Shown here: one piece after another, positions 3,409 to 47,284 of the stretch | Numbering within the stretch: the stretch's first letter is position 1 | Layout: each line of letters opens with the position of its first letter | NCBI GenBank assembly: GCA_050174575.1 | Contig: JBFXJT010000007.1 | Coordinates: 6,648 to 70,647 of the forward strand | Reading direction: 5' to 3' | Source: Bacilli bacterium | Lineage (GTDB): Bacteria; Bacillota_I; Bacilli_A; ML615J-28; CAG-698 | DNA length: 64,000 nucleotides | Program-made: the position numbers and the translations under genes | The notes under the pieces: model-generated | What the model was told of the DNA's origin: nothing | The model's database searches: none | What the model saw: the letters and a program-made list of their open reading frames with translations, nothing else

Positions 3409-3588
3409 ATTTCTTCTTCTTTCCTTTGATAATCTAATTATACATAAACTTTTAATTTAAATAAATGATTTCTTTTATGTAATGATGAATCTTGCTTTGT
3501 TTGACTATATTTCGTCTATAATTTGGTCTGTAATCGCTTTTGGATAATCATCTAATAAGAATAAGTAAAATTAAATAAGTTATCTTAA

Positions 3589-3620
3589 AAGAAAAAACGA
3601 ATCAACAGCATTGATTCGTT
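3589..3620 (-). terminator. Rho-independent terminator after the GH13 gene
   Basis: Minus-strand RNA AACGAAUCAA-ugcug-UUGAUUCGUU followed by UUUUUU, starting immediately after the stop codon at 3621. Confidence 0.75.
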
Positions 3621-5477
3621 TTACTTCAATTTAATTATTTTTGCCGATTTTCTAGGAACATTGATTTTTTTTACAATCCAAATGTCATCAATCAAATCAA
3701 AACCTTCATTCAATTGATATTGAATTTCATGATTATTGTTGTTAATTATCGTTAATATTTTATCATTTCCCTTGCTTCTTGAGAAAGCAAAGATGTTGTT
3801 GGCTGTCGATTCTTCACAGTAATTACCATCAACAAAAATGGGATCTTTTCTAATAGCACCTAGTTTTTGATACCAACTTAAGATCTCTTGATTAATATTA
3901 TCCCAGTTGATTGTTTTACGGCAGAAAGGATCTCTGAACCCTTCAAGACCTGTTTCATCGCCATAAAAAATGGAAGGAACACCAGGGAGAGTAAACTGGA
4001 TGGCTGTTGCCATTTTCAATTTCATGATGGCATTGGAATAATCATTTTGATTCATATAATAATAGGCTTGCTCTTCTTTTGATAAATGGTCACCGTTTAC
4101 AAAAGCAAAATTAGTTAATAAACGAACTGTATCATGGGTTCCCAAATGGTTCATTAAACAATCCACTACTTGCTTAGGATAATTATTGATAAGATGACGT
4201 ATTTGAATAACCAACCCTGTTAAATTGTCATGGTTTAAAAAGTCGATAATTGCATTTTTTAAGGGGTAATTCATGACACTATCCATTTGTCTTCCCAATA
4301 AATATTTTCTTCTTTGGTCATAAGCCAATTTTGTGGATGCATCCTCCCAAACTTCACCGATTACAATGTTTTCAGGATTGTTTTTTTTCACTGAATTATA
4401 AATTTTCTCTAAGAAAGCATTATTTAGTTCATCAACAACATCTAGTCGAACACCTTTTGCTCCTTTCGTTAACCATTTATCTAAAACACCATATTTCCCA
4501 GTAATAAATTGTTGAAAATTGGGATCTTCTTGATTAACAGCTGGAAGTGTCTTAAAGCCCCACCAACAAATATATTGGTTTGGCCAATTAGTAAATTTAT
4601 ACCAACTGTAATATTTTGATGAACGTGACTGATAAGCACCAAGTTCTTGGTAATGGTTGTATTTGTTAAAATAAAGACTATCATCACCTGTATGATTAAA
4701 AACACCATCAAAAATAACTGAGATACCTTTTTCTTGGGCTTTTTGACACAATAATTGAAAGTCTTCTTCTGTTCCAAACATGGAATCAATCTTTCGGTAA
4801 TCACTTGTATCATACTTATGATTTGAAAAAGCTTCAAAAATCGGATTAAGATAAATAATGCCAACATTTAGTGATTCTAAATAGTCTAATTTGTCAATAA
4901 TACCTTGTAAATTACCACCAAAAAAATCATTATTTAAAACTGATCCATTAACAGGTTGATAATTGGGAACATCAAGCCAATTTTCATGCAATAGGGTACC
5001 AGTTTTGGGTGTCGTTTGTCCATGTTTATAAAAGCGGTCCACCATTATTTGGTACATTATTTTCCCTTTAAACCAGTTAAGATTACCAATTAGTTCTTGA
5101 TAAACTAACAATTGCCAAGATGTTGGATAATAATCCGTTAAAACACCATCCAAATCCCGATTTGAACCAATAAAATGTGTTCCATATGTGTCACTAAATT
5201 GAAAATAATACCAGTATAAACCAACTTGTGGCAACGAAAAAGAAACCGAATAAGCTTGATAGTTATTTTCGATTTGTTTTTTGACCAATCCTAATCGTTT
5301 TATTTCTTGATTCTTATCATCTTTGATAACCAAATCTAAATGGAACAGTTGATAGGCTTCTACGATATAAATAGTGATAATTACATTATCACTGATAATT
5401 ACATTATCACTATTTTTGATTGCCCCTTGAGGTGATTTAAAATGTTCAAAGAAAGGGTTGAATAAAATATTTTTCAT
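3621..5477 (-). CDS. GH13 neopullulanase / cyclomaltodextrinase-type alpha-amylase (intracellular)
   Basis: The four GH13 conserved regions are present: FNHTGDDS (I), GVRLDVVDE (II), IGEVWED (III), MNHLGTHDTVR (IV). N-terminal neopullulanase-type N-domain and no signal peptide. Overlaps malP by 4 nt. Confidence 0.85.
   Translation of the reverse strand: MKNILFNPFFEHFKSPQGAIKNSDNVIISDNVIITIYIVEAYQLFHLDLVIKDDKNQEIKRLGLVKKQIENNYQAYSVSFSLPQVGLYWYYFQFSDTYGTHFIGSNRDLDGVLTDYYPTSWQLLVYQELIGNLNWFKGKIMYQIMVDRFYKHGQTTPKTGTLLHENWLDVPNYQPVNGSVLNNDFFGGNLQGIIDKLDYLESLNVGIIYLNPIFEAFSNHKYDTSDYRKIDSMFGTEEDFQLLCQKAQEKGISVIFDGVFNHTGDDSLYFNKYNHYQELGAYQSRSSKYYSWYKFTNWPNQYICWWGFKTLPAVNQEDPNFQQFITGKYGVLDKWLTKGAKGVRLDVVDELNNAFLEKIYNSVKKNNPENIVIGEVWEDASTKLAYDQRRKYLLGRQMDSVMNYPLKNAIIDFLNHDNLTGLVIQIRHLINNYPKQVVDCLMNHLGTHDTVRLLTNFAFVNGDHLSKEEQAYYYMNQNDYSNAIMKLKMATAIQFTLPGVPSIFYGDETGLEGFRDPFCRKTINWDNINQEILSWYQKLGAIRKDPIFVDGNYCEESTANNIFAFSRSKGNDKILTIINNNNHEIQYQLNEGFDLIDDIWIVKKINVPRKSAKIIKLK
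5376..5411 (-). repeat. Perfect 18-bp tandem duplication inside the GH13 CDS (in frame)
   Basis: The unit gataattacattatcact occurs twice back to back, encoding SDNVII-SDNVII near the N-terminus. Confidence 0.9.
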
Positions 5478-11752: not shown

Positions 11753-13435
11753 TCACTTTCTAATTTTTATATGGTCTACTAAATTGTCATGAAAAACATA
11801 CTTATTGTCAATTGGCATATCACCCCATCGACTTATACACTGATCATAAATTTCTTCATAAACGTAAATCGACAAATCTTCATTTAATTTTACATCAATT
11901 TTTTGTTGTTCATTCAAAATATTGGAAATATAAATAATAAAATTTCCGGAAAAAAGTCTTACTATTTCGCCTTGTCTTAAATCATAATAAACATGAACTA
12001 AGTTGTGGCACTGGATAAAAGCTCCTGTTTCAACGGATTTAATCGTTGAAGAAAGGTATATTGTCTCTAAATCAAAACAATTTGCGAAAGCGGAAGCTTT
12101 TATTGTTTCACAACCTTCACCAAAAACAATTTCCAATAGACAATCTACATTGTCAAAAGCTCCAGTACTGATCTCCTTTGATGAAATGGTTAACTTATTA
12201 ATTGATGCATAATTAAAAGTTTTTGTTAGAACGACTTTTGCAGCAATATTTGCTTGATTTATTTTTGCATTAAAAAAGGCAAATTCAGAAATAGTATCAA
12301 CATGATTCCCGATAATCAAATTATCAAACGTTCGGCCAGCACATGAATATTCGCCAATTTTGTAAAAAACTTGAAAATCAGTTATGTCTGCATTACTTAG
12401 AATTAAATGATTTTGATTGTTTTCATTTACTACCAAAGAACCTTCTATTACATTATAAATGCTTTCATTACTAACTGTCATATTTTTTAGAGGGCAGCCA
12501 ATAAAGGCTTCTGCATTAACAAGAAGATTAGTTCCAAAAAAAACATTATTTAAATTAGAACAATTGAAAAAGGCATTTCTACCAAAAACGATATTTTGGT
12601 TGGGGAAGTTAATTTCTAAAAGATTAATACAGTTACTAAAGGCATTATCACCTATTTCTTTCATATTTGAAGTAAAATCAATTTTCGTTAATCCTGAATT
12701 TTCAAAAGCTTGGCTATTGATTATTTCAAGTGTTTCAGGAAAATTGATACTCGTTAATGAAGTACATCCAAAAAAGCAATTCCTACCAATTTCAGTTAAT
12801 TGTAAGGGAAGAGTAACGTTTGTTAACTGTAAACAATCATAGAATAAGTAGTCAGGAATAGTTGTGAAATTGTTTAAAAAAGTTACAGATGATATATCCG
12901 TGCTAGCGAAAGAAGAATCGGAAACTTCTACATCTTCTAGAACAATATTGCCTGATAATTTTGTACTCTGATATGCTCCAATCCCAATAAACTTAATATT
13001 TTCTGGGAGATTAATGACCGCTTCATTGTCATAAAACGCTTCTTGGCCTATATATTCAACACTATCAGCAATATTTACATTAAGCAGACCACTTTCAAAA
13101 AAAGCTTGATCTTCAATGATTTTTAGTCCCTCTTCGATAGTAAGGGATTCAATCGGTAAATTAACATCAGCCCCCCAGATACCATGATTCATCTTAAAAG
13201 CTTCACTTTTGATGGTAGAGACTTGTTTATTATTATGATAGGCAGGGATAAGGATATCTTTTACATAAAGCCCCGAAAATCCAGTCACTGCATAAGTATC
13301 ATCATCTAGGAGTTCAAACTCTAAATAATCATGGGGATTGGTACTTTTACTATAGCGCCCACCACATGCTGTCAACATTGTCAACAAAAAAAATATACTA
13401 ATAAAAAATGTAAAAAATAAAGTGACTTTCTTCAT
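11753..13435 (-). CDS. BspA-type leucine-rich-repeat (LRR_5) surface lipoprotein
   Basis: Signal peptide with lipobox LLTMLTAC. Tandem ~22-aa repeats of the form I...AF..C..L..I.FP... Confidence 0.75.
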   Translation of the reverse strand: MKKVTLFFTFFISIFFLLTMLTACGGRYSKSTNPHDYLEFELLDDDTYAVTGFSGLYVKDILIPAYHNNKQVSTIKSEAFKMNHGIWGADVNLPIESLTIEEGLKIIEDQAFFESGLLNVNIADSVEYIGQEAFYDNEAVINLPENIKFIGIGAYQSTKLSGNIVLEDVEVSDSSFASTDISSVTFLNNFTTIPDYLFYDCLQLTNVTLPLQLTEIGRNCFFGCTSLTSINFPETLEIINSQAFENSGLTKIDFTSNMKEIGDNAFSNCINLLEINFPNQNIVFGRNAFFNCSNLNNVFFGTNLLVNAEAFIGCPLKNMTVSNESIYNVIEGSLVVNENNQNHLILSNADITDFQVFYKIGEYSCAGRTFDNLIIGNHVDTISEFAFFNAKINQANIAAKVVLTKTFNYASINKLTISSKEISTGAFDNVDCLLEIVFGEGCETIKASAFANCFDLETIYLSSTIKSVETGAFIQCHNLVHVYYDLRQGEIVRLFSGNFIIYISNILNEQQKIDVKLNEDLSIYVYEEIYDQCISRWGDMPIDNKYVFHDNLVDHIKIRK

Positions 13436-13569
13436 TAAAAATAAACTCCAATACTTTGAGAAATTTTTATACTTTCGATTTTTATATCATAATTGTTTTT
13501 AATCCATTTTATTTTTTGAAAAAAAGCTTTAATACAAATTAATTTTGCATTAAAGCGTTTGTCTCTAAA

Positions 13570-13644
13570 TGGTGGAATCAGAGGGGTTTGAACCCACGAC
13601 CCCTTGCACGTCAAGCAAGTGCTCTCCCGCTGAGCTATGATTCC
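13570..13644 (-). tRNA. tRNA-Val (anticodon GAC)
   Basis: 75 nt: GGAATCA-TA-GCTC-AGCGGGA-GAGC-A-CTTGC-TTGACGT-GCAAG-...-TTCAAAC-...-TGATTCC-ACCA. The acceptor, D and anticodon stems pair perfectly; there is one T-stem mismatch; CCA is encoded. Confidence 0.85.
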
Positions 13645-13702
13645 AAGCAAAGTAATTATACTAAAATGAAAAGCAAATTGCAATCCTAATTTAATTACTC
13701 AT

Positions 13703-13727
13703 CAAAAAATGGCACCTTTTGGTGCCA
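13703..13727 (-). terminator. Rho-independent terminator of the lysine-fermentation operon
   Basis: UGGCACC-aaaa-GGUGCCA followed by UUUUUU, located between the kamE stop (13732) and tRNA-Val. Confidence 0.8.
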
Positions 13728-13731
13728 CTTT

Positions 13732-14469
13732 CTATTCATTCAATTGCTTTCTTCTAATTAATTCTAAAACAGCAAAAGATGCTACATCTTCGGCATATTT
13801 CTTTTGACCGAATCCAGCATCATACCCCAATTCTTTTGCAAGTTCATGAGTTATTCTGGCTCCTCCGGCAATCAAAAGGACTTGATCTCTAATCCCTTCC
13901 GCTTCTAACATTTCCACAAGTTCTAATAAATTTTTCAAATGAACGTCTTTTTGTGTTACTGTTTGGCTAACAAGCAAAACATCCGCTTTAACTTCTTTAG
14001 CTTTTTTCACAAAAGCTTCATTGGAAACTTGACTACCTAAATTGTAAGTTTTGATGTTTTTATAGCGTTCTAAACCATAATGACCAGCAAAACCCTTCAT
14101 GTTCATAATGGCATCGATCCCAACAGTATGGGCATCAGTTCCTGTAGAAGCACCAATAAAAACAATTTCTCTTTTCAATTCGTTTTCAATCATTATTTCT
14201 ATTTCTTCTTTTGTATAAGTCGGAGTTGTGACATCACTAACATGAATAAGATTAGGATCAACAGAAAAAGGAATGGATCCATAAATAACATAAAAGCTAA
14301 AATTATCGCCCAAGGTCTCAGCTGCAACAACTTGAGGATCAATCAAACCCATTTGTTTTGCAAGAGACTTAGCGCATTCAATTCCTAGCGTGTTATTAAC
14401 AAGCGGTAAAGAAAAACTTATTTGGACTTTACCATCATTTGATGTATCGCCATAAGGTTTAATCAACAT
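13732..14469 (-). CDS. kamE: Lysine 5,6-aminomutase beta subunit (B12-binding)
   Basis: 245 aa. B12-binding Rossmann domain with DxHxxG motif (GTDAHTVGIDAI). Overlaps kamD. Confidence 0.85.
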   Translation of the reverse strand: MLIKPYGDTSNDGKVQISFSLPLVNNTLGIECAKSLAKQMGLIDPQVVAAETLGDNFSFYVIYGSIPFSVDPNLIHVSDVTTPTYTKEEIEIMIENELKREIVFIGASTGTDAHTVGIDAIMNMKGFAGHYGLERYKNIKTYNLGSQVSNEAFVKKAKEVKADVLLVSQTVTQKDVHLKNLLELVEMLEAEGIRDQVLLIAGGARITHELAKELGYDAGFGQKKYAEDVASFAVLELIRRKQLNE

Positions 14470-16015
14470 GTTCTTCCTCCTCTAAAGCATCCATAACAAC
14501 ATTAACATAATTGTGGTGCTTTAAAAAAACGCCTTCTAATCCTTTTCCTCCAGTAAAACTGCGTTTGATGTCCGCAAATACGCCGTTTTCTAAAGCTTTG
14601 AATAGCGACATTTGTTCGATTTCTTGCAATAATTGATGAGCTTCGTTCAAAACATTTTTAGCTCTTTTTGCCATGATTCCATTTTGTTTATATTCAATTT
14701 CATCACCGAATGACTTCATCGAATTAGCAATCAATTTTGCATTTTCAATTGCTAAGTAGCGATCAGACATAAATGGTGTATGAATGGCTTCCGTCATCAT
14801 CCCCAACAGATGAATTGATTGATTAGAGATGATTGTTGCCATATTGAACATTGTGTTTTGCATATAAGCTCGGAAAATATTCCCAGTTATATGTTTTGTT
14901 GGTGGCATATATTTTAAAGGAGCCTCAGGGAAAATTTCTCTAGCCATTTGAGCTTGGGCTAATTCATACAAAAAACTATTTTCAATTGTCGGATCAATTT
15001 CAAAAGCATGGCCTAAACCCATTAAATTTTTTGGGAGGTGAGCTTTTATGGCGAATTGTTCATTAATAAATTGTGAAGCTAAAACGGTATGAGCTTGCGA
15101 ATAGGCATCAGCTGTTGTTAAGTAATTATCTTCACCGGTATTAATGATGATTCCCGCTAAAGCATTAATCCTTCTTGAAAAATTTTGATCAATTAGCGTT
15201 CTTTGCATATTAATATCACGGAAAATTATGCCATAAAGACTATCATTGAGTAAAACGTCGAGCCTTTCCAAAGCAGCCATTGCGGCGATTTCCGGCATAC
15301 ATAAACCCGATGCATAATTGACTAATTTTATATACCTTTTTTCCTGATGAGAAACCTGATCAAGTGCTTCACGCATAATGCGAAAGTTTTCTTGGGTGGC
15401 ATAAGTTCCGCCAAATCCCTCAGTTGTCGCCCCAAAAGGAACAAAATCTAATAAAGACTGCCCTGTTGACCTAATAACGGCAATAATATCAGCACCAGCC
15501 TTGGCAGCAGCTTTAGCTTGGATGACATCTTCATAGATGTTACCCGTTGCTACAATAACATAAATTTCAGTTGCTTTAGGTGGATATAGAGTAAACAAAG
15601 CTGCTCTTTTTTGTTTGTTTTGTTTAATTTTTTCTATTTGTTTTTGAACATATGGCTGTAAACTTAATTTAATATTTTTAGGAGATGCTAACGGAAAATC
15701 CGTTAATTTCATATCACCATTTAGGACGCTAGCCACCAAATCATTTAATGTTTTTTTAGTAGCAATCAAGGCACTCCCTAGATAACTGGAAACACCCAAA
15801 GTCAAATCGCCACTTTCTTTAACTTGGTTGACTAGTACATTAGGGATTGGCACGTCGAAGTCATCGACGCCATCAATTCCTAATAATCGAACAACAGTCC
15901 GCTCAATGGCAACGGTCGTGCGTTCGTTGATAAAGTTCTGAACATCATCAGCAATATGCAAGGCACATTGGCGACATTCATTGATAATATTTTGATCTAA
16001 ATGGAATTTATTCAT
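14459..16015 (-). CDS. kamD: Lysine 5,6-aminomutase alpha subunit
   Basis: 518 aa, the size and composition of the KamD/OraE-type TIM-barrel alpha subunit. Sits between the embedded P-loop gene and kamE. Confidence 0.8.
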   Translation of the reverse strand: MNKFHLDQNIINECRQCALHIADDVQNFINERTTVAIERTVVRLLGIDGVDDFDVPIPNVLVNQVKESGDLTLGVSSYLGSALIATKKTLNDLVASVLNGDMKLTDFPLASPKNIKLSLQPYVQKQIEKIKQNKQKRAALFTLYPPKATEIYVIVATGNIYEDVIQAKAAAKAGADIIAVIRSTGQSLLDFVPFGATTEGFGGTYATQENFRIMREALDQVSHQEKRYIKLVNYASGLCMPEIAAMAALERLDVLLNDSLYGIIFRDINMQRTLIDQNFSRRINALAGIIINTGEDNYLTTADAYSQAHTVLASQFINEQFAIKAHLPKNLMGLGHAFEIDPTIENSFLYELAQAQMAREIFPEAPLKYMPPTKHITGNIFRAYMQNTMFNMATIISNQSIHLLGMMTEAIHTPFMSDRYLAIENAKLIANSMKSFGDEIEYKQNGIMAKRAKNVLNEAHQLLQEIEQMSLFKALENGVFADIKRSFTGGKGLEGVFLKHHNYVNVVMDALEEEEHVD

Positions 16016-16016
16016 A

Positions 16017-17000
16017 TTAATTACTCTTTTCTAAAACATCGTATATCGGTAAAGTTATTCTATCTTCTATTTTATTACGAAAATTTGCTAAAGAAATGAC
16101 ATTTCCAGTAGGAGAGAATGGATTAAAAGTTAAGGCAACAAGATTTATTGGTTGAAGTACAAAAATTTTTTGTTTTAAAAGCAACAAATGTTTTAACAAA
16201 ATATCATCAGCTAATAAATGTGTAGGACTATTAACGATTAAATCACAATTTAAGTTTTGACGATTGTCAATTAAGGCTTTTAAAAATGATGGACTAACCG
16301 CTTTAGGAACATATACATAACGAATATTTTGCTTAATTTGGGAAATTATGTCTGCTCCACAATCTAGTGTTGTCGTTCTTTTTAAGAATGACATTTTATT
16401 TTGATCATCAATTAAAACAATGTCATCCCATTCTTTTAAGTCAAGTGTCCCATTATATTTTGGCAAATTGAATAATTTGATGGTGTTTAAAGTATGTAGA
16501 ACAATTTTGTCAAGTTGATAGGAAAAACTAGAACCAACACAAAAAATCGTGGCATCACAAATTTGTGCAAGGGTTGTTCGGGAAAAAGCTCCATCAATCA
16601 ATATTTTTTGACATTCATATTCTTTTAATTTATCAATAATCATCCGCATTGATTGAATTGTCGATGGTCCCCCAACAAGACAGTTGCCGGCTTTGGTAAT
16701 TTTGATTAACACAATGGGACCTAATGCGGTCACAATCTTTGTTTCTTCGATAATGTCATATTGGGCTTCACATTCATCCAAACAATTTTTAGCGGTTGCA
16801 ACAATGGTGTTTGTGGAAGTAAAAATCCTTGGTTTCGGCAAGAAAGTGATTTGATCAATTTTTTCGCCATCAAGGCCAATAGAAGAAATACCCGTTGTAA
16901 TCGATTGATATTGTGTTAACAAAAAATTTAAAACTGTTGTTTTCCCTGCATTTTTTGCATTGCCAACTGTACAAATTACTTGATAATCTTCAAGTAATGA
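16017..17000 (-). CDS. CbiA/CobQ-like P-loop ATPase embedded in the kam operon (candidate aminomutase chaperone/reactivase); start codon unresolved
   Basis: The first canonical start (TTG, complement of 16920-16922) lies downstream of a Walker-A-like segment VICTVGNAKNAGKTTVLNF. That segment is in frame and stop-free back into the kamA 3' end, and the only in-frame initiator candidate there is ATT. Coordinates include the upstream extension. Confidence 0.55.
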   Translation of the reverse strand, partial: SLLEDYQVICTVGNAKNAGKTTVLNFLLTQYQSITTGISSIGLDGEKIDQITFLPKPRIFTSTNTIVATAKNCLDECEAQYDIIEETKIVTALGPIVLIKITKAGNCLVGGPSTIQSMRMIIDKLKEYECQKILIDGAFSRTTLAQICDATIFCVGSSFSYQLDKIVLHTLNTIKLFNLPKYNGTLDLKEWDDIVLIDDQNKMSFLKRTTTLDCGADIISQIKQNIRYVYVPKAVSPSFLKALIDNRQNLNCDLIVNSPTHLLADDILLKHLLLLKQKIFVLQPINLVALTFNPFSPTGNVISLANFRNKIEDRITLPIYDVLEKSN

Positions 17001-17002
17001 AG

Positions 17003-18259
17003 TTAATGCTTTAATGCTCGTTCTCGTCTTTCTAAATGTTTGGGTTCGATTGCTCTTTGTTTGCCGGCAAGTAATCCACTAACACCTTCAGCTTCTTTAC
17101 TAGTACTGCAATTTGGATTTTCATGATAATCAGTTGGTTCATTGTAAGTGGTAATAACACCTTCATAATTTCTCAAAACAACTTTTCCCGGTGCTTGTGA
17201 AATTACATAGTTAGGCATAACGGGGATTTTACCTCCACCACCAGGAGCATCAACGACAAATGTCGGAACGCATAACCCACTAATGTGACCACGTAAACCT
17301 TCGATAATTTCAATACCTTTACTAATTGGTGTTCGGAAATGCTCAATACCAAGAGAAAGATCACATTGGTATAAATAGTATGGGCGAACACGCATTTGCA
17401 CTAAGCACGTGCATAATTTTCGCATTGTATCGACACAGTCATTAACGCCTCTTAAAAGAACACTTTGATTTCCCAAAGGAATTCCGGCATCAGCCATTTT
17501 CGCAATAGCCTTGGCACTTTCTTCAGTTATTTCATCATAATGGTTAAAATGAGTATTTACCCAAATAGGATGATATTTTTTTAACATTGAAACAAGTTCG
17601 TCCGTAATTCTTTGAGGCATAACAACGGGTGTCCTTGTGCCAATGCGGATAATTTCTACATGGTCAATTGCTCTTAAACGAGAAATGATTGATTCCAATT
17701 TCGCATCACTCATTAATAAAGCATCACCACCGGATAACAAGACATCTCGAACAGCAGGTGTTTTGCGAATATACTCAATTGCTTGTTCAATGCGATCACT
17801 TGGTAAATCATGGTCTGTTTGTCCTGCAAAACGTCTTCTTGTACAATGACGGCAATACATACTACACATATCCGTAATCAAAAACAAAACACGGTCAGGA
17901 TAACGATGTGTTAATCCAGGTACAGGTGAATCCTTATCTTCATCAAGCGGATCAACAAGATCGTTCTTGCCAATGATCATTTCATTAATGCTCGGGATAG
18001 CCTGTTTTCTAATTGGGCAATCAACGTTGTCTGGATCGATTAAACACAAAAAATAAGGTGTAATGGCCATCCGAAAACGTGATAGTACTTCAGTAATCTG
18101 TTGTTCTTCTTCGCTCGTTAAATTGATATATTTTTTAAGTTGCAAGACATCGGTAATCCGGTTTCGAACCTGCCAATGCCAGTCTTGCCAATCTGTTGAA
18201 GAGACATTAGGAAAATACTTTTGTTTTCTTTCTAAATATCTTTCATTTACTATTAACAT
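17003..18259 (-). CDS. kamA: L-lysine 2,3-aminomutase (radical SAM)
   Basis: 418 aa. Radical-SAM cluster motif CSMYCRHCTRRR (CxxxCxxC) with KamA-like flanks. Confidence 0.92.
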   Translation of the reverse strand: MLIVNERYLERKQKYFPNVSSTDWQDWHWQVRNRITDVLQLKKYINLTSEEEQQITEVLSRFRMAITPYFLCLIDPDNVDCPIRKQAIPSINEMIIGKNDLVDPLDEDKDSPVPGLTHRYPDRVLFLITDMCSMYCRHCTRRRFAGQTDHDLPSDRIEQAIEYIRKTPAVRDVLLSGGDALLMSDAKLESIISRLRAIDHVEIIRIGTRTPVVMPQRITDELVSMLKKYHPIWVNTHFNHYDEITEESAKAIAKMADAGIPLGNQSVLLRGVNDCVDTMRKLCTCLVQMRVRPYYLYQCDLSLGIEHFRTPISKGIEIIEGLRGHISGLCVPTFVVDAPGGGGKIPVMPNYVISQAPGKVVLRNYEGVITTYNEPTDYHENPNCSTSKEAEGVSGLLAGKQRAIEPKHLERRERALKH

Positions 18260-18262
18260 AAT

Positions 18263-19303
18263 TTACTCCTTCGGTTGATATCTTTTTACAAATAGATCAT
18301 AAAGCGGTTTTGATTCCCTTAAAAGGCTCAAGGTTAAATCGGCGTGTCCCGGAGTATAACCGTTACCGATAATCATGGTAGCTTCACTGGCAATGCCTTC
18401 AGCACCTAAAGCAGCTTTTGTGAAAGAAGTTGCCATACTGAAGAAATAAACAATACCGCTTGGTTTGGTTGCTAAAATCGATGTCATTTCTGTATTTGGA
18501 ACATTAACGACATTAATTGTGACATCAACTTGTTGATTATTATTGACTCGCATGATTTCTTGATAGACTGCCATCGGATCTCTAGCATCTGCTACAATGA
18601 TTTCGTCACAGACTCCGAGTGATTGCAAATCTTCAAGTTTATTGGTATTACTTATTAGCGCTATGATTTTGCCATTTGGACCGGCGTTCTTGTGAGCTTG
18701 ATAGCAGCATAATACACCACTTTTACCAGCTGCCCCTAGCACCAAAACAGTATTGTTAGGTTTAACCAATTTTTCAACTTGTGCAGGTGCACCAGCAACA
18801 TCTAAAGCAGATAATACTAAATGTTCACTTAAGTCATTGGGGATTTTCGCATAAATGCCCGTAGCAAATAAGATTGCTTCTGCTTCAACATCAACTTGAT
18901 CTTTATGCAAATGAATTTGTTTGATCGCTTTTATTTTTAATGGTGTTAGTGATAAAGAAACTAAAGTCACAATTTTATCACCAATTTTTAAATCGCATTT
19001 TAAGTCTTTTCCTATTTGTTTAATAACACCTAAAAGCATTCCCCCACTACCTGTTACAGGGTTTTGCATTTTTCCGCGTTTATTGACAATATCCATAATC
19101 ATCGTTTTCATGGCTTCCACATCACTATTAGTTGCTTGTTTAATTTGGGTAAAAGATGCGGAATCGATATTTAATGTTTTTACATCAATTAAAATTTCAT
19201 TGTCTTGGCAAATCATCGTATTATCTAATTGATCTGCAGCTTGAGGGAGAACACCTACCGGACTAATGACACGGTGAGTTCCATAAGGGCATGGCTTTTT
19301 CAT
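18263..19303 (-). CDS. kdd: L-erythro-3,5-diaminohexanoate dehydrogenase
   Basis: 346 aa NAD(P)-dependent dehydrogenase in the canonical position between kamA and kce. Rossmann GAAGKSG. Confidence 0.7.
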   Translation of the reverse strand: MKKPCPYGTHRVISPVGVLPQAADQLDNTMICQDNEILIDVKTLNIDSASFTQIKQATNSDVEAMKTMIMDIVNKRGKMQNPVTGSGGMLLGVIKQIGKDLKCDLKIGDKIVTLVSLSLTPLKIKAIKQIHLHKDQVDVEAEAILFATGIYAKIPNDLSEHLVLSALDVAGAPAQVEKLVKPNNTVLVLGAAGKSGVLCCYQAHKNAGPNGKIIALISNTNKLEDLQSLGVCDEIIVADARDPMAVYQEIMRVNNNQQVDVTINVVNVPNTEMTSILATKPSGIVYFFSMATSFTKAALGAEGIASEATMIIGNGYTPGHADLTLSLLRESKPLYDLFVKRYQPKE

Positions 19304-20127
19304 ATTTTCTTCTCCATTCTTAATATTTTTCTAGTTTCTTCGGGATTGGCAATTTCCCGATTGTATTTTTTTGCAATTTGAACGACTTTCGCTACTAAAG
19401 CGGCATTCGATGGAGCTAATACTCCTTTGTCAATGTAAATATTGTCTTCTAAACCAACGCGAACATGACCACCATGCATAATGGAAAGTTCTGCAAGGGA
19501 AAATTCAAAACGACCGATTCCGGCAACACTATATGTCGCATCATTTGGAATGCTGTCCTTTAAAAACAGAAAATCCCGTTCTTCTCCAGTCATTCCACCG
19601 TTAACTCCTAAAACAAAACTAAAATGGTAGGGTGGATTAATAAAGCCTTTTTTCGCAAGTCTTTGTATCATATCAATATGACCTTTTTCAAAGCATTCAA
19701 GTTCTTTATAAATATGACGACTTTCCAAAACATTGGCAAAATACTTAATATCGTTTTCTGTATTAACAAAAATATCATCACCACCAAAGTTTAATGTTCC
19801 ACAATCAAGCGTCGCCATTTCAGGATTTAGAGTAACCGGACCTAAACGCTCATCACGGCTCATGCCAACGGCTCCTCCAGTTGATACTTGAACGATGACA
19901 TCGGGACATTTAGCTTTGATTGCTGTAATGATTTCTTTAAAACGTTTGGCATCTTGCGTCGGCGTTCCATCATCAAAACGGGCATGCAAGTGAATGATTG
20001 ATGCTTTCGCCAAATAAGCCTGATAAGCACTTTCAGCCATCTCTGAAACAGTATAGGGAACATTGGGATTATGGTCTTTAGTAACTTCCGCACCAGAAAT
20101 AGCACAAGTAATGATTAATTTTTCCAT
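19300..20127 (-). CDS. kce: 3-keto-5-aminohexanoate cleavage enzyme (BKACE/DUF849)
   Basis: ~275 aa TIM-barrel DUF849-type protein. The likely start is the internal [14 protein letters not shown]. Sits between kal and kdd. Confidence 0.7.
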
Positions 20128-20507
20128 GTTTTCCTCTGAAGAGCTTTTGGTACAACACAAGTACCCTTTGCAGAAGCAACCAAAATTGGTTCATCTAAAA
20201 AATCAGCTGCTGAAGGAACAATATTTGGTTTAGCTTCGATTACTTTGTAACATGCAAAAGTCATTTTTCTTGAAGTGTTTCCCACTTCAACAATTTCACC
20301 ATGCACTTCCAAAAAGTCACCAGCATAAACCGGAGCCAAAAAATCTACTTGCTCGTAAGCCCGAAATAATCCTTCATCTCCATCATGGCGAATGAGCAAT
20401 TCTGTCGCAACATCGCCAAATAAAGCTAAGATTCGAGCTCCATCCACAAGATTTCCTCCATAATGGGCATCGCTTAAGGACATTCGTAAACGGATTATTG
20501 TTTTCAT
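20115..20507 (-). CDS. kal: 3-aminobutyryl-CoA ammonia-lyase
   Basis: 130 aa hot-dog-fold protein of the size characteristic of Kal, between the CoA-transferase genes and kce. Confidence 0.65.
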
Positions 20508-21151
20508 ATTGAAACTCCTTTCATTGGCAATACTTGATCAATAATTAAAGTTGCTTCAGTTACAGCGACAACTTCATCAATCGAATAATTAGGATGAACT
20601 TCTAATAGATGTAACCCATCGTCACGAACCTCCATAACGGCCATTTCTGTAACGATTAAGTTAGCTTGTTTATAAGCAGTAAGTGGTAAAACACAACGTT
20701 TTAATATTTTTGATTTTCCATTATTTGTATGTTGCATCGCAATAATAACCTTTTTAGCACCAACAACCAAATCCATGGCACCACCCATTCCCGGAACTTT
20801 CTTTCCTGGAATAATCCATGAAGCAAGGCTACCTTCTTCATCAACTTCAAGAGCACCTAGGACAGTGACATCAACATGACCACCACGAATAAACATAAAG
20901 GAAGTTGCAGAATCAATAAACGATCCTCCCGGCATAATCGTTGCTTTCATTCCTCCGGCATTAACGATATCACTTTGTTCTTCTGTTAATGGGCCAATAC
21001 CAATTATTCCATTTTCTGATTGTAAAATGACATGTTTGGTCGGAGGAATAAAATTTGCCACTAAAGTAGGAGTACCAATACCCAAATTGACAATATCGCC
21101 ATCTTTAAGTTCTAAAGCTATTCGACTAGCAATAATAAACTTTTCGTCCAT
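20504..21151 (-). CDS. atoA: CoA-transferase subunit B (acetoacetate:butyrate/acetate CoA-transferase)
   Basis: 215 aa 3-oxoacid CoA-transferase beta-subunit-like protein. Overlaps both neighbouring genes. Confidence 0.8.
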
Positions 21152-21798
21152 TATTCCACCTCCATAACGATGTAATCAACTAACGGAAAAGGTGTAATGA
21201 CTGCTTCAGGATCTATTTCTTCAAGTTTTTGCTGGCATACAGCAATCACTAATGATGCAGCTGTAGCCATGATTGGATTAAAATTACGCATTGTTTTGCG
21301 ATATGCAAGATTTCCATATCGATCGCAAATCGCTCCACCAATTAAAGCTAAGTCAGCAAATAACGGTTCTTCTAGCAAATAATCAATCCCTTGAACCTGG
21401 ATTACTCTTTTCCCTTCTTGAACAATTGTTTTTAGTCCAGTTGGGGTCAAAACACCACCTAGTCCCGCACCTGCAGCACGGATTTGTTCGACCAATGTCC
21501 CTTGAGGAACTAAAACAACTTCTAGTTTACCTTCTTGCATCAACTTCCCGACAGTTGGATTTGTTCCAATATGGGATGCAATCAATTTTTTAACCCGATT
21601 AGCAACAATCAATTTTCCAACTCCTCGGTCTTCAAATCCTCCGTCATTACAAATGATTGTAAAATCGGTAAAACTTGTTTCTAAAATTAAATCAATTAAG
21701 TAATCAGGACTTCCGTTTGCTAAAAAACCACCAACCATAATCGTCATGCCGGATTTAAGGTGACTTTTAAAATTTTCCTTACAAATAAAACCTCGCAT
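21151..21798 (-). CDS. atoD: CoA-transferase subunit A
   Basis: 215 aa 3-oxoacid CoA-transferase alpha-subunit-like protein (GGF..NGSP...). Confidence 0.8.
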
Positions 21799-21807
21799 AT
21801 TTCCTCC

Positions 21808-22224
21808 TTACTTAGGGGGCATAATAGTCGCTTCACCGACTATCACCACTTCGTTTTTGTCGTTTTTTGCAACGCAATCAAAAACAACACGATTTTTTTC
21901 CATAATGATTTCTTTTACAGTCACAAAAGCCGTTATTGTATCATTCAAATAAACTGGCTTAATAAACTTTAAACTTTGGAAAGTATAGATACTTCCTAAA
22001 CCAGGTAATTCAGTACCTAAGATGGCACTAAAAAGAGAGCCAACAAGCATACCATGAACTATCCTCGTTTTAAAAATCGTTGTTTTTGCATAATCTTCAT
22101 TTACATGAGCGGGGTTAAAGTCACCAGAAACTGAGGCAAAATTGTTAACATCAGTTTCTGTAAAACTCTTTGTTATTGAACTTGTTTGTCCAATAAACAA
22201 TTCGTTAATTGTCAATTTTTTCAA
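21808..22224 (-). CDS. MaoC-like (R)-specific enoyl-CoA hydratase / hot-dog protein, first gene of the lysine operon
   Basis: The MaoC dehydratase domain begins at KKLTINELFIGQ. The probable start is TTG (complement of 22222-22224), 8 nt after RBS AAAGGAG. The longer ATG-extended ORF would run through the terminator hairpin and riboswitch. Confidence 0.6.
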   Translation of the reverse strand: MKKLTINELFIGQTSSITKSFTETDVNNFASVSGDFNPAHVNEDYAKTTIFKTRIVHGMLVGSLFSAILGTELPGLGSIYTFQSLKFIKPVYLNDTITAFVTVKEIIMEKNRVVFDCVAKNDKNEVVIVGEATIMPPK

Positions 22225-22241
22225 GAAATAACTCCTTTCAT

Positions 22242-22273
22242 AAAAAAAGCTGTTGTCTTTTAAAGACAACAGC
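22242..22273 (-). terminator. Riboswitch expression-platform terminator
   Basis: GCUGUUGUCUU-uua-AAGACAACAGC followed by UUUUUUU, immediately upstream of the RBS of the first operon gene. Confidence 0.8.
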
Positions 22274-22435
22274 GCTCCATTTCCCAAATGGCAGTGGATA
22301 AGGCATTCCTTGTCCACCAAGACTTTAATGAATGAACTCATTAAATCTTTCGGCGATATTTCCCTTTATTTGTCACATTGGGAGTTCATTCCCTTAGCAT
22401 TGACAAATTACCCTAAATAACGCACCTCTGTGTAT
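22262..22435 (-). promoter_or_regulatory. Lysine riboswitch (L-box) aptamer in the 5' leader of the lysine-fermentation operon
   Basis: Leader begins ACAGAGGUGCG (L-box AGAGGUGCG) and contains AAAGGGAAAUAUCGCCGAAAG (L-box GGGGAGCGUCGCCGAAG), the UUUGUCA...UGACAAA helix, CCAUUUGGGAAAUGG and the 3' GGAGCGCUGU (L-box GGAG(G/C)GCUAUC). About 170 nt, matching the length and order of the B. subtilis lysC element. Confidence 0.75.
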
Positions 22436-22446
22436 TAACTAATACT

Positions 22447-22475
22447 ATTATACCGAAACAAAAATGGCTTGTCAA
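22447..22475 (-). promoter_or_regulatory. Consensus sigma70 promoter of the lysine-fermentation operon
   Basis: Minus strand TTGACA (22470-22475), a 17-nt spacer, then TATAAT (22447-22452). The transcript start is predicted ~10 nt upstream of the aptamer. Confidence 0.8.
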
Positions 22476-22492
22476 GAGCCACAAAGTTAAAC

Positions 22493-22516: not shown

Positions 22517-24157
22517 TTAATCGTTTTGTTTGGTAAGATAGAAATATTTAGTATCCGCTTCAGCCATATGACCAACAATAAAATTATCTACTAAAAACGA
22601 TGCTAAAACGATACTTTTTATTTCACCATTTTGATATTTCTTTTTCATATCATTTGCTTTTAAAATAATGTCGCGATGCAGAGCACAATGTTCATCATAA
22701 TTAGGATAATCTAAATTATACATTACTTTTTCTTCAAAATAAAAATGTTGAGAAATGTGTTTGATGATTTTTTCAATTTGATTGATAATTTTTTCATAGG
22801 GAACATTTGTTTGAAACATAAAAATTAAGTTGTTTCCCAATTCAATAATCTCTCGATGTTGATTATCTATATCAACATTGCCACTACTCCATTCATTATG
22901 CCATTCAAAATACGGTGAAGTTGATAAAGATTCCATGGAGAGGCTCTCTGAAGAGCTTGCCACACGGTTACGTCCCTGTTCTTTTGCACAGTACATTGCA
23001 TCATCCGTACGTTTATACCAACTTCTTAATGACTCGTTAGGAATCATTTGGGCAACACCAAAACTTGCCGTTAATTTGGAAATAATGGGAAACCTGAAAC
23101 CTGCAACAGCAATTCGAATTTTATCAGCAACTTTTACAGCATCTTCCACTTTTGTATCTGGCAATACGATAACAAATTCTTCGCCTCCAAGACGAGACAA
23201 ATAGTCTGTTTTTCTAATTGATGATTTTAACAGTTGGGAAAAACTTACTAAAATATCATCACCAACAGGATGGCCCCAAGTATCATTTACAAATTTAAAA
23301 TGATCAATATCAGCAATAATCATTGATAAAGGCAAAGCTGTATTGTTGGCTTTTTCCATTGTTTCATTAGTAATTTTATGAAAGAAGTGACGATTGTAAA
23401 GTCCGGTAAGGTTATCAATTGTCATTTCAAATTCAAGACGGTTAGCTAATTCTACTGTTTTAGTGATATCGCGTGCAGACGCATAAATAAATCTTCCAAA
23501 TTGTTTTGCCCGCCACTCTAAAAAATGATATTGTCCATTTTTATCTTTATAACGATTAACAAAATTATTAATTTCTTCACCCTTAAGTAAATTTTTCATC
23601 ACTTCTCTTGTAGAAGAAATATCTTCCTCATGCATAAATTCAAAAAAAGTACGGGTTGTTAAATCAGCAAAGTTGGCTCCAACTAGGTTTTCAAAATAAT
23701 CATTTGTTTTAATAAAATGACCATCCATATCTGAGACCACTAAAAGGTCAAGGTTAACATCGATTAATCCTTTTAATAATTCCTCTTCTTTCATGGTTTT
23801 AGTGATATCTTCATAAAAGCAACCAAAGTGATGACAATCAATGGGAAAGATGGTTGCTTTAACCCATGAATGATTAATAGGTAAAAAGCAATTGCATGTT
23901 TTAACCTCTTTTTGATTTACTGCTTTCCTAAAGTTTTGATACCATTCATTGTTAAAATGATTATTAACATTTGCTGTTGATAAATAACTTTTTCCTATTA
24001 ATGCTTCTTTTGGAAGTGGAATAAACCGTTCAAACGCTTCGTTTACTCCGGAAAAATAGTAGTCAACAGGTTCTTGTTTTTCGTTAAAGATAATTTCATG
24101 AAAAGAACAAGGAATAGGAGATTCTTTAAAAAAGTCTAAAAAATTACAGTTATTCAT
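22517..24157 (-). CDS. Sensory diguanylate cyclase: PAS - GGDEF - C-terminal hemerythrin-like domain
   Basis: GGDEF core (RLGGEEF, active-site type) and an N-terminal PAS-like region. The C-terminal ~130 aa carry hemerythrin-type H/E/D ligands (HREIIELGN..., HCALHRDI..., GHMAEAD). It lies 11 nt downstream of speE. Confidence 0.75.
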   Translation of the reverse strand: MNNCNFLDFFKESPIPCSFHEIIFNEKQEPVDYYFSGVNEAFERFIPLPKEALIGKSYLSTANVNNHFNNEWYQNFRKAVNQKEVKTCNCFLPINHSWVKATIFPIDCHHFGCFYEDITKTMKEEELLKGLIDVNLDLLVVSDMDGHFIKTNDYFENLVGANFADLTTRTFFEFMHEEDISSTREVMKNLLKGEEINNFVNRYKDKNGQYHFLEWRAKQFGRFIYASARDITKTVELANRLEFEMTIDNLTGLYNRHFFHKITNETMEKANNTALPLSMIIADIDHFKFVNDTWGHPVGDDILVSFSQLLKSSIRKTDYLSRLGGEEFVIVLPDTKVEDAVKVADKIRIAVAGFRFPIISKLTASFGVAQMIPNESLRSWYKRTDDAMYCAKEQGRNRVASSSESLSMESLSTSPYFEWHNEWSSGNVDIDNQHREIIELGNNLIFMFQTNVPYEKIINQIEKIIKHISQHFYFEEKVMYNLDYPNYDEHCALHRDIILKANDMKKKYQNGEIKSIVLASFLVDNFIVGHMAEADTKYFYLTKQND

Positions 24158-24168
24158 ACTTTGCCCCT

Positions 24169-25011
24169 CTATTTACTTAGTATTTGTTTGACATAATTAG
24201 GCAATACCAAGGAAGCTTGGTGAATAGAAAAATTATAATACTTTAAATTTAATGAGTCAATAAAGGATTGACTTCCCTTAATAATCTGAGGATTTTCTGT
24301 ATTAGAAGCAAATCCAAACAACCAATGGCCGCTTGGATAAGTGGGGATGAATGCTTGGTATACTGTTGCTGTGTGAAAAATCTCTCTAAGTTTTTCATGT
24401 GCTCGTAACATTTCTTGGCGCGTTTTTTCAAAGTAGGGACTTTCGTGCTGATTAACAAGAATTCCATTCGGCTTTAAAATGTTAGCACAATTTTTGTAAA
24501 ATTCACGGCTGAACAATCCTTCGCCTGGTCCTATGGGATCAGTCGAATCGATTACAATTAAATCATAAGTCTCGTGTGTTTGCTTAACAAATGCACTTCC
24601 ATCTGTAAATATTAATTTTACTCGAGGATCCGTTAATTTTGCTGCTGTTTGTGGCAGCAGCTCTTGGCATTTACGAACAACTATTTCATCAATTTCCACC
24701 ATAGTAATGGACTTGATAGTTGGGTATTTGCATAATTCTCGGACTGAACCACCATCACCACCACCAATCACCAATACATTGGAAATGGATGGGTTAACTG
24801 ACAAAGGAAAATGAATCATCATTTCATGATAAATAAATTCGTCTTTTTCGTTGGCCATCATGATGTCATCAAGAGTAAAAAAACGCCCCAATTCATAAGA
24901 ATCATAAAAATCTATTTTTTGGAAGGGGGTCTTTTGAGAAAATAAATGCTCTTTTATTTTTATCGAAAACTGAATATTATCCGTCCAGTATTCACTAAAC
25001 CATTTATCCAT
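24169..25011 (-). CDS. speE: Spermidine synthase (polyamine aminopropyltransferase)
   Basis: 280 aa with VLVIGGGDGGSVRELCKYP, the SpeE signature region. Confidence 0.9.
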   Translation of the reverse strand: MDKWFSEYWTDNIQFSIKIKEHLFSQKTPFQKIDFYDSYELGRFFTLDDIMMANEKDEFIYHEMMIHFPLSVNPSISNVLVIGGGDGGSVRELCKYPTIKSITMVEIDEIVVRKCQELLPQTAAKLTDPRVKLIFTDGSAFVKQTHETYDLIVIDSTDPIGPGEGLFSREFYKNCANILKPNGILVNQHESPYFEKTRQEMLRAHEKLREIFHTATVYQAFIPTYPSGHWLFGFASNTENPQIIKGSQSFIDSLNLKYYNFSIHQASLVLPNYVKQILSK

Positions 25012-25814
25012 TATTTCTCCAACTTCATTCGCGGAATATTCATTCCATAAAATATTTCTGCCATTTCAGCGTTAATTTCTTGTCTGATTTTCGCAACTTC
25101 TTCTTCTGTCAAATCCGTACTTTTGATATTGAATAAATAATTATCTAATATAAGGGTATTTAGCATCATTTTTGTGTGAAAAATATTGGTATAAGCCAAA
25201 TTCACATCGTAAGTTGTATACTTTGATAAAACCTCATCGGGGATAAAGTCTTGAATAGAATCAATGTCATGATCAAGGAAATGCTTTTCACCGTTTAAAT
25301 CTCTAGTAAACCCACGAATGCGATAATCAATTGTAATTATATCCGAGTCAAATTGATTAATTAAGTAATTTAATGTTTTTAATGGAGAAATTTCTCCACA
25401 TGTGGAAACATCAATATCAACTCGAAAAGTACTGATGGGACTGCCGGGATAACTTTCAGGATATGTATGAACAGTCAAATGACTTTTATCTAAATGGCCA
25501 ACAACGGATTCTTTTGCGGGAATTTCGACTTGTTCGTTTTTCCCATGATACTCGGAAATTAAAACAGTAACGCTTGCCCCTTGGGGTTCATAATCTTGGG
25601 TCGCTACGTTTAAAATCTTCGCATCAATCATTTTAGTAACTTCGGTTAAAATCTTTTTTAAGCGGGTACTATTGTACTGCTCATTGATATATTCAATATA
25701 AGCTTTTCTTTCAAGGTCATCTCTAGTATAGCAAATATCATATATATTAAAACTCAATGTTTTTGTAAGATTGTTAAAACCATAAAGTTTTATTGGATGA
25801 CGTTTTCTTACCAT
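25011..25814 (-). CDS. speD: S-adenosylmethionine decarboxylase proenzyme (E. coli SpeD type)
   Basis: 267 aa with HLDKSHLTVHTYPE, the self-processing/pyruvoyl region of class 1B AdoMetDC. Confidence 0.85.
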   Translation of the reverse strand: MVRKRHPIKLYGFNNLTKTLSFNIYDICYTRDDLERKAYIEYINEQYNSTRLKKILTEVTKMIDAKILNVATQDYEPQGASVTVLISEYHGKNEQVEIPAKESVVGHLDKSHLTVHTYPESYPGSPISTFRVDIDVSTCGEISPLKTLNYLINQFDSDIITIDYRIRGFTRDLNGEKHFLDHDIDSIQDFIPDEVLSKYTTYDVNLAYTNIFHTKMMLNTLILDNYLFNIKSTDLTEEEVAKIRQEINAEMAEIFYGMNIPRMKLEK

Positions 25815-38544: not shown

Positions 38545-38555
38545 CTTTTTCCCTC

Positions 38556-47268: not shown

Positions 47269-47284
47269 GCAAATCCTCCTTTTG

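Follow-up and report, generated by a model that had tools for sequence, protein, structure and literature searches.

How far does a single compact operon carry lysine along a fermentative route, and is lysine itself the signal that turns it on? These questions are raised by a 64,000-nucleotide stretch of DNA (hereafter, the window; contig JBFXJT010000007.1) assigned to a Bacilli bacterium. Its minus strand carries, at positions 22475-13704, a single compact transcription unit formed by a promoter, a lysine riboswitch, a leader terminator, ten genes and an end terminator, the genes following one another in the order PhaJ/MaoC hydratase, atoD, atoA, kal, kce, kdd, kamA, kamB, kamD and kamE. As judged from its sequence, this is very likely an operon, inducible by lysine, that encodes the upper part of the classical 3-keto-5-aminohexanoate pathway of lysine fermentation, and its reach ends at acetoacetate, or acetoacetyl-CoA, and crotonyl-CoA. 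The genes, with model scores and cut-offs where these apply, are the following:

21808-22224, minus strand: PhaJ/MaoC-type (R)-specific enoyl-CoA hydratase, 138 residues, TTG start with an AGGAG Shine-Dalgarno site; PF01575, 85 bits.
21151-21798, minus strand: atoD-like CoA-transferase subunit A; TIGR02429, 197 > 128.5; PF01144.
20504-21151, minus strand: atoA-like CoA-transferase subunit B; TIGR02428, 286 > 243.6.
20115-20507, minus strand: kal, 3-aminobutyryl-CoA ammonia lyase; NF052388 equivalog, 194 > 160.
19300-20127, minus strand: kce, the cleavage enzyme; NF052387, 412 > 382, the model aligning from residue 3; PDB 2Y7D, E = 1.2e-78.
18263-19303, minus strand: kdd, L-erythro-3,5-diaminohexanoate dehydrogenase; NF052381, 259 > 200.
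17003-18259, minus strand: kamA, lysine 2,3-aminomutase (radical SAM); TIGR03820, 611 > 525; PDB 2A5H, E = 6.5e-191.
16017-17015, minus strand, with a proposed start at 17015: kamB, lysine 5,6-aminomutase reactivase subunit, a SIMIBI-like P-loop NTPase; NF052386, 257 > 210.
14459-16015, minus strand: kamD, alpha subunit of lysine 5,6-aminomutase; NF052384, 838 > 600; PDB 1XRS_A, E = 4e-206.
13732-14469, minus strand: kamE, beta subunit of lysine 5,6-aminomutase; NF052385, 369 > 280; PF02310; PDB 1XRS_B, E = 5e-92.

Seven of the genes (kal, kce, kdd, kamA, kamB, kamD and kamE) exceed the curated cut-offs of NCBIfam equivalog models for the lysine pathway, and comparisons with other genomes were made on 80 loci obtained from a KamD scan of species-representative genomes and labelled L001 and so forth. 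The best PDB matches of KamA, KamD, KamE and Kce are solved lysine enzymes, aligned over nearly their full length. The KamA translation carries the CxxxCxxC motif, and neither the glutamate nor the arginine aminomutase model reaches its own cut-off with it. Both atoD and atoA pass models of the 3-oxoacid CoA-transferase subfamily, and the pair is co-located with the lysine genes in many related loci, which supports its orthology. A reading of this DNA made from the letters alone (the sequence-only reading) had proposed one riboswitch-controlled operon carrying kamA, kamDE, kdd, kce, kal, atoDA, a MaoC-like hydratase and a P-loop gene, and had taken it to encode every dedicated step from lysine to acetoacetate and crotonyl-CoA. 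On both counts it is borne out by the family models, by the matches to solved structures and by synteny with more than 70 lysine operons.

An assignment to ornithine fermentation, or to the synthesis of beta-lysine as an osmolyte by AblA/AblB, has to be considered at this point, given that KamD and KamE share their folds with OraE and that KamA also matches the 'AblA' lysine 2,3-aminomutase equivalog of N-epsilon-acetyl-beta-lysine synthesis. Best matches to ornithine enzymes, the outcome that the sequence-only reading had singled out as reassigning the pathway, were however not obtained. KamD scores 838 bits with the lysine model and 131 with OraE, and KamE 369 and 134, respectively, both OraE values being far below the cut-off of 800 bits of that model. 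The comparison with solved structures agrees, as ornithine aminomutase (3KOW) matches only at approximately 1e-27, against the 4e-206 of 1XRS_A. Furthermore, no ablB, oraS, ortAB or ord is present, and Kdd, Kce and Kal belong specifically to the lysine route. The reassignment to ornithine is thus effectively refuted by the family-model and PDB scores, and the chance that the cluster serves either of these alternative purposes is negligible.

By family membership, and with the steps as given in PMC3149608, the lysine operon would operate as follows. KamA would convert L-lysine into beta-lysine, which KamDE, an enzyme dependent on adenosylcobalamin and pyridoxal phosphate, would isomerize to 3,5-diaminohexanoate, presumably with KamB as the P-loop chaperone that maintains its activity. 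Kdd would oxidize 3,5-diaminohexanoate to 3-keto-5-aminohexanoate, and Kce would cleave this product with acetyl-CoA, yielding acetoacetate and 3-aminobutyryl-CoA. Acetoacetate would be activated to acetoacetyl-CoA by AtoDA, with butyryl-CoA or acetyl-CoA as the CoA donor. More speculatively, reduction to butyryl-CoA, thiolysis and ATP formation would need genes located elsewhere.

The same KamA, KamDE, Kdd, Kce, Kal and AtoDA set is found in the lysine clusters of Fusobacterium nucleatum, Acetoanaerobium (Clostridium) sticklandii, Intestinimonas AF211 and 'Ca. Cloacimonas' (PMC3149608, PMC4697335), which are also alike in the accessory 'HP' gene (KamB), in the clustering of the genes and in the chemistry down to acetoacetate and crotonyl-CoA. 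Differences from these published clusters concern the arrangement, with ten genes in one compact operon, atoDA near the front and kamDE last, the addition of a PhaJ-type hydratase gene in the first place, and the MutS-family gene (KamC) of those clusters, which is not present here. At variance with the Kat variant of Cloacimonas, Kal is present.

Whether lysine would switch the operon on depends on the elements that precede the first gene, namely:

22447-22475, minus strand: sigma-70-type promoter, TTGACA and TATAAT spaced by 17 nt, 12 of 12 consensus positions.
22262-22438, minus strand: lysine riboswitch aptamer (RF00168), 81.1 bits against a gathering score of 30, covering model positions 1-182 of 182.
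22242-22273, minus strand: expression platform, an intrinsic terminator (GCUGUUGUCUUU/AAAGACAACAGC) followed by U7, the 5' arm of which includes the 3' strand of P1.

The -10 element of the promoter ends approximately 8 nt ahead of the aptamer. The P1 helix is formed by ACAG (5' strand) and CUGU (3' strand), that is, by four canonical pairs, and its nucleotides are the same that form the base of the terminator stem (GCUGUUGUC...GACAACAGC). The terminator stem overlaps the P1 3' strand directly, with no separate antiterminator element between them. Folding of the whole leader gives a minimum free energy of -58.9 kcal/mol with the terminator and of -50.6 kcal/mol when P1 is enforced, so that the terminator state is the more stable by 8.3 kcal/mol. 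With P1 enforced, the terminator is reduced to a 6-bp stub lying 6 nt from the U-run, and the nascent transcript that contains only the aptamer, before the terminator 3' arm is made, folds with P1. Since the 5' arm of the terminator holds the P1 3' strand, an ON switch is predicted. Transcription would start at the consensus promoter and run into the riboswitch; when lysine is absent, the terminator hairpin would form and transcription would halt before the first gene. When lysine is bound, P1 would hold the CUGU of the terminator-stem base, the terminator would be blocked beside its U-run, and the ten genes would be transcribed.

This layout is conserved. The overlap between P1 and terminator is kept in L001, L002, L004, L006, L008 and L032, the six relatives for which the full leader was folded, and a matching terminator hairpin is found in L059 and L072. 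With six leaders in register (those of the window, L001, L002, L004, L006 and L008), compensatory changes are observed at three pairs of the terminator stem, and alignment columns 178-181 can pair either with the ACAG of P1 or with the terminator 3' arm, both pairings being canonical in 6/6 sequences compared. An RF00168 aptamer precedes the same operon in seven relatives; in loci of Clostridia and Fusobacteria it is found ahead of operons that begin with kal. The P1/terminator principle is the same in clostridial loci, L009 and L049 being examples.

Most lysine riboswitches are OFF switches (PMC2258182), so that a conventional switch, shutting the operon down at high lysine, would be of the majority type. 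It is nevertheless very improbable here by taking into account the direct overlap of terminator and P1 3' strand, conserved in the relatives with no antiterminator interposed, the counter-productive outcome of a catabolic operon repressed by its own substrate, and the positive regulation of lysine catabolic genes in the literature (PMC5584792). Barrick and Breaker listed lysine riboswitches of the ON type in which parts of terminator stems are buried (PMC2258182); for C. sticklandii, F. nucleatum and Thermoanaerobacter, Mukherjee et al. described positively regulated ones located upstream of kal/kce (PMC5584792), and ON-type switches before lysine catabolic genes go back to Rodionov et al. 2003 (as cited in PMC2258182). 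With these known cases the present leader shares the RF00168 aptamer, the terminator stem built on P1 nucleotides and a lysine fermentation operon as its target. It differs in the first regulated gene, which is phaJ/maoC instead of kal or a regulator, and in the very short P1.

Two observations on other leaders may be added. In L059 (leader at 3546-3715) the P1/terminator layout is conserved and the nhmmer similarity to the aptamer is 66 bits, and the leader does not reach the Rfam gathering score; this is possibly a lysine aptamer of degenerate or variant form. In the clostridial leaders of L017 (approx. 2530-2650) and L037 (approx. 2090-2250) the P1 3' strand takes part in a first hairpin that lacks a U-run and is followed by a separate terminator, whereas the platform of the window is a single hairpin.

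Several points weigh against a lysine-inducible operon for this pathway, or against parts of it. The ON logic is deduced from the competition between secondary structures alone, and P1 has just four canonical pairs. The CoA-transferase scores below the cut-off of the acetate CoA-transferase alpha equivalog (267 < 315); therefore, the substrates of AtoDA are assigned from genomic context only. The proposed start of kamB (ATT 17015) would be a non-canonical one, and tblastn with the L009 KamC as the query gave no match in the window for KamC, the ATPase that partners KamB. Finally, butyryl-CoA dehydrogenase/Etf (Bcd/Etf), thiolase and Pta/Ack, which complete the pathway as steps 6 and 8-10 (PMC3149608), were not found among the 49 open reading frames (ORFs) of the window of at least 150 residues. 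The initial description of the operon as a complete lysine-to-butyrate/acetate pathway was thus overstated, these enzymes being encoded neither in the operon nor in the rest of the window.

The start of kamB deserves closer consideration: the gene was described as encoding a P-loop protein, and the P-loop is encoded only if a non-canonical start is used. The loop (GNAKNAGKTT, at 16964-16935) lies upstream of the first canonical in-frame start, TTG 16922, and no ATG, GTG or TTG is found between the preceding stop and the loop; the same holds for L001, L002, L003, L005, L007 and L059. In the outgroups the codon at -17 from the P-loop glycine is ATG, and 10/10 members of the clade have ATT, ATC or ATA there, the pattern having been noted in the window and at the kamA/kamB junction of L001-L008, L010 and L059; in the window this codon is ATT 17015, 13 nt inside kamA, preceded by a weak Shine-Dalgarno site. 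Although this belongs to the more speculative points, translation of kamB would most likely begin at this weak, conserved AUU start, coupled to that of kamA.

Two ways of explaining the missing start by other means were considered. A sequencing-error frameshift at the kamA/kamB junction was rejected because the canonical start is missing in independent assemblies too, which speaks against a mistake of assembly. As for a programmed -1 frameshift that would join KamA to KamB, a slippery A_AAA_AAA heptamer was found only in L002 and L003, not in the window or in the others.

A decaying or truncated kamB, giving a 301-residue product from TTG 16922 that lacks the P-loop, or nothing functional, would account for the lack of any ATG, GTG or TTG upstream of the loop and for the weak Shine-Dalgarno site before ATT 17015. 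It would also agree with the NCBI entry for this protein (P0001, from the 'Bacilli bacterium' metagenome-assembled genome, MAG), a 301-residue 'hypothetical protein' starting after the P-loop. We regard it as quite improbable, however, because the Walker-A-like loop (GN[AT]KNAGKTT) and the beta-strand that precedes it are conserved at the amino acid level in relatives down to 35% identity, and because the AUH codon of all ten clade members stands exactly where the outgroups have AUG. Moreover, the AlphaFold (AF2) model of a 332-residue KamB (predicted local distance difference test value, 92) places the N-terminal strand and the P-loop in the NTPase core with high confidence. Approximately one-quarter of the public KamB homologues (n = 120, among the matches listed) lack the P-loop, many of those matches starting with 'MGNAKNAGKTT'. 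This looks like a family-wide mis-call of the KamB start in public annotation, the homologues being called without the loop because gene callers miss a non-canonical start codon.

As for its function, KamB found no family in the Pfam scan and no relative in the PDB sequence search, and its Foldseek matches are weak and limited to SIMIBI-class NTPases (SRP54/FtsY, MinD/ParA, MMAA/MeaB; template-modelling score, approx. 0.25-0.30; E, approx. 5e-3). Like MeaB/MMAA, the chaperones of methylmalonyl-CoA mutase, KamB is a SIMIBI-class P-loop NTPase encoded beside a B12-dependent mutase, but the structural similarity to them is weak, with template-modelling scores confined to that same range. In other lineages a gene of approximately 1.5 kb between kamB and kamD encodes KamC, a MutS-like reactivase ATPase (for L009 KamC, NF052383, 589 bits; MutS_V), and KamC stands beside kamB in 46 of the 80 related loci. 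KamB and KamC correspond to the 'HP' and 'mutS' genes drawn in published lysine clusters (PMC3149608), and a literature search on KamB/KamC returned nothing. With the same tblastn query, KamC is absent from all 14 Mycoplasmatota-type loci (L001-L008, L010, L025, L032, L059, L072 and L076), so that, in contrast to the two-component KamB/KamC reactivase, KamB occurs without KamC in loci of this lineage.

The first gene of the operon is the other feature that sets this lineage apart. The best structural matches of the hydratase, 5CPG (E = 2.6e-28) and 1IQ6 (E = 1.2e-25), are both (R)-specific enoyl-CoA hydratases, and its translation carries SGDFNPAH, an intact GDxNPxH motif with the catalytic Asp and His. 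A longer ORF for this gene, from ATG 22341 (177 residues), was rejected, as it would cross both the aptamer and the terminator. The PhaJ enzymes of Aeromonas caviae (1IQ6) and Pseudomonas aeruginosa (5CPG) have the same single hot-dog domain of approximately 135 residues and the same motif, and are matched over nearly their full length; the genomic context of the predicted hydratase is, however, amino acid fermentation and not polyhydroxyalkanoate synthesis or fatty acid metabolism. The substrate, again among the more speculative points, would probably be crotonyl-CoA; a search for literature on MaoC together with 3-aminobutyryl-CoA gave no result.

If so, crotonyl-CoA might not be reduced to butyryl-CoA at all. 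Hydration by PhaJ to (R)-3-hydroxybutyryl-CoA, followed by oxidation to acetoacetyl-CoA and with acetyl-CoA as the CoA donor of AtoDA, would turn lysine mainly into acetate and reducing equivalents, an outcome comparable to that of the Kat variant of Cloacimonas. Such a scheme is consistent with the hydratase being the first gene in every complete clade relative (L001, L002, L004, L006, L008, L032, L059 and L072) and missing from the operon of other lineages, only L016 having a copy, upstream and on the opposite strand. The absence of bcd/etf from the window, a short-chain dehydrogenase/reductase (SDR) gene that adjoins the operon in L008, an ORF of similar size and position in L002, and the precedent of a butyrate-independent branch (PMC3149608) point in the same direction. 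However, the window has no SDR gene beside the operon, it does have one for a butyrate kinase (47285-48358), and Bcd/Etf may well be encoded outside the 64 kb. We rate this scheme as rather unlikely because the search for Bcd/Etf covered the window only.

Among the 80 loci, the nearest is L001 (CAZYFI010000027.1), with a KamD 82% identical. It is labelled 'uncultured Bacteroidales', yet it is apparently syntenic with the low-GC Bacilli window, its three upstream ORFs having the sizes and order of speD, speE and the GGDEF gene (by size only); probably this reflects a binning or label problem. The next nearest loci, at 60-69% identity, belong to Izemoplasmatales, Tenericutes, Acholeplasmatales and 'Bacilli' MAGs, along with the complete genome CP076020 (L008). 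The exact order maoC-atoD-atoA-kal-kce-kdd-kamA-kamB-kamD-kamE is found in the eight loci just listed for the hydratase, and all complete members of the group share it, whereas in other lineages the order is different, typically with kal first and without maoC in the operon. PhaJ in the first place, a missing KamC and a kamB whose P-loop needs a non-canonical start are thus quirks common to the Izemoplasmatales-like relatives. That they add up to a re-engineered lysine pathway, in which KamB alone would service the B12 mutase, an AUU, AUC or AUA start would couple kamB to kamA, and PhaJ would divert crotonyl-CoA to acetoacetyl-CoA for acetate formation independent of Bcd/Etf, is a proposal that we consider unlikely as a whole. 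Among the papers found on Izemoplasma and lysine, and on amino acid fermentation and butyrate in Izemoplasmatales, no title or opening line of an abstract makes mention of a lysine fermentation of this kind.

Strong terminators flank the operon. Upstream, a GGDEF gene is closed by its own terminator at 22518-22497, just before the operon promoter, which sets the operon apart from the preceding unit. The features at the opposite end are the following:

13704-13727, minus strand: operon terminator, UGGCACC-AAAA-GGUGCCA followed by U6, -18.8 kcal/mol, between kamE and tRNA-Val.
13570-13644, minus strand: tRNA-Val(GAC), a neighbouring, separate transcription unit.

The dedicated terminator that had been placed between kamE and the tRNA is therefore found as described. 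The operon had also been said to end at a tRNA, which is accurate in that tRNA-Val adjoins it, but the latter is served by a promoter-like site (13683-13655) and a terminator (13556-13526) separate from those of the operon, and the adjacency is not conserved in related loci. With the best-supported starts, the junctions between successive genes measure +9, -1, -4, -13, -4, +3, -13, +1 and -11 nt. The packing is tight, with real overlaps of 1-13 nt instead of the 4-46 nt initially proposed, the value of 46 nt being an artefact of the longest ORF of kce, which begins at TTG 20160; this start was rejected, since it is at ATG 20127 that both the family model and the homologues begin to align. AGGAG-like Shine-Dalgarno sites precede most of the genes, and no terminator of a quality comparable to that of the flanking ones was found inside the operon; from this layout, there are good grounds to expect that one transcript would serve all ten genes. 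The stop codon of atoA and kce is TGA, which implies that the standard bacterial code applies.

Other genes of the window and of its relatives provide some context. Directly downstream of kamE, L008 (12281-21258) has a gene for a cobalamin adenosyltransferase of the PduO type, along with a set for glutamate fermentation (genes for glutamate mutase S/L/E and methylaspartate ammonia-lyase, and citrate-lyase-like ones), which together with the lysine operon forms a B12-dependent amino acid fermentation island. In L002 (approx. 12285-16183), ORFs match this downstream set in size and order (by size only), and in the window tRNA-Val and a leucine-rich repeat lipoprotein are found where L008 has the glutamate genes. 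On the other side, the upstream neighbours are a PAS-GGDEF-hemerythrin diguanylate cyclase (22517-24157) and speE/speD (24169-25814); cyclic di-GMP signalling through the cyclase argues against a classical reduced Mollicute lifestyle of the source organism. The butyrate kinase (TIGR02707, 532 bits), 25 kb away from the operon, adjoins an amino acid dehydrogenase of the Leu/Phe/Trp type (46189-48358), and the pair is possibly an ATP-forming module for branched- or short-chain acyl phosphates, unlinked to the lysine operon. Three large tandem proteins of the GH32 (sucrose-6-phosphate hydrolase/beta-fructosidase) family at 34116-40904, accompanied by an ABC sugar transporter, a LacI regulator and a fructokinase, look like a fructan utilization locus. 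In the rest of the window, genes are found for transporters, for the GGDEF protein, for the utilization of glycogen and fructan, for the synthesis of polyamines and for functions of a similar kind.

Both the pathway and its control by lysine-ON riboswitches are established knowledge, so that the lineage-specific details are modestly interesting and hold no surprise, and the understanding of the pathway itself is unchanged. What is gained is, on the one hand, a systematic annotation error exposed, KamB homologues having been called without their P-loop, and a compact example of an ON-type lysine riboswitch, which could serve for direct testing or as a lysine-inducible part. On the other hand, the missing KamC offers a natural test of the minimal reactivase requirement, and an uncultured lineage of low-GC Bacilli, a relative of Izemoplasmatales, is assigned a specific, substrate-induced amino acid fermentation.

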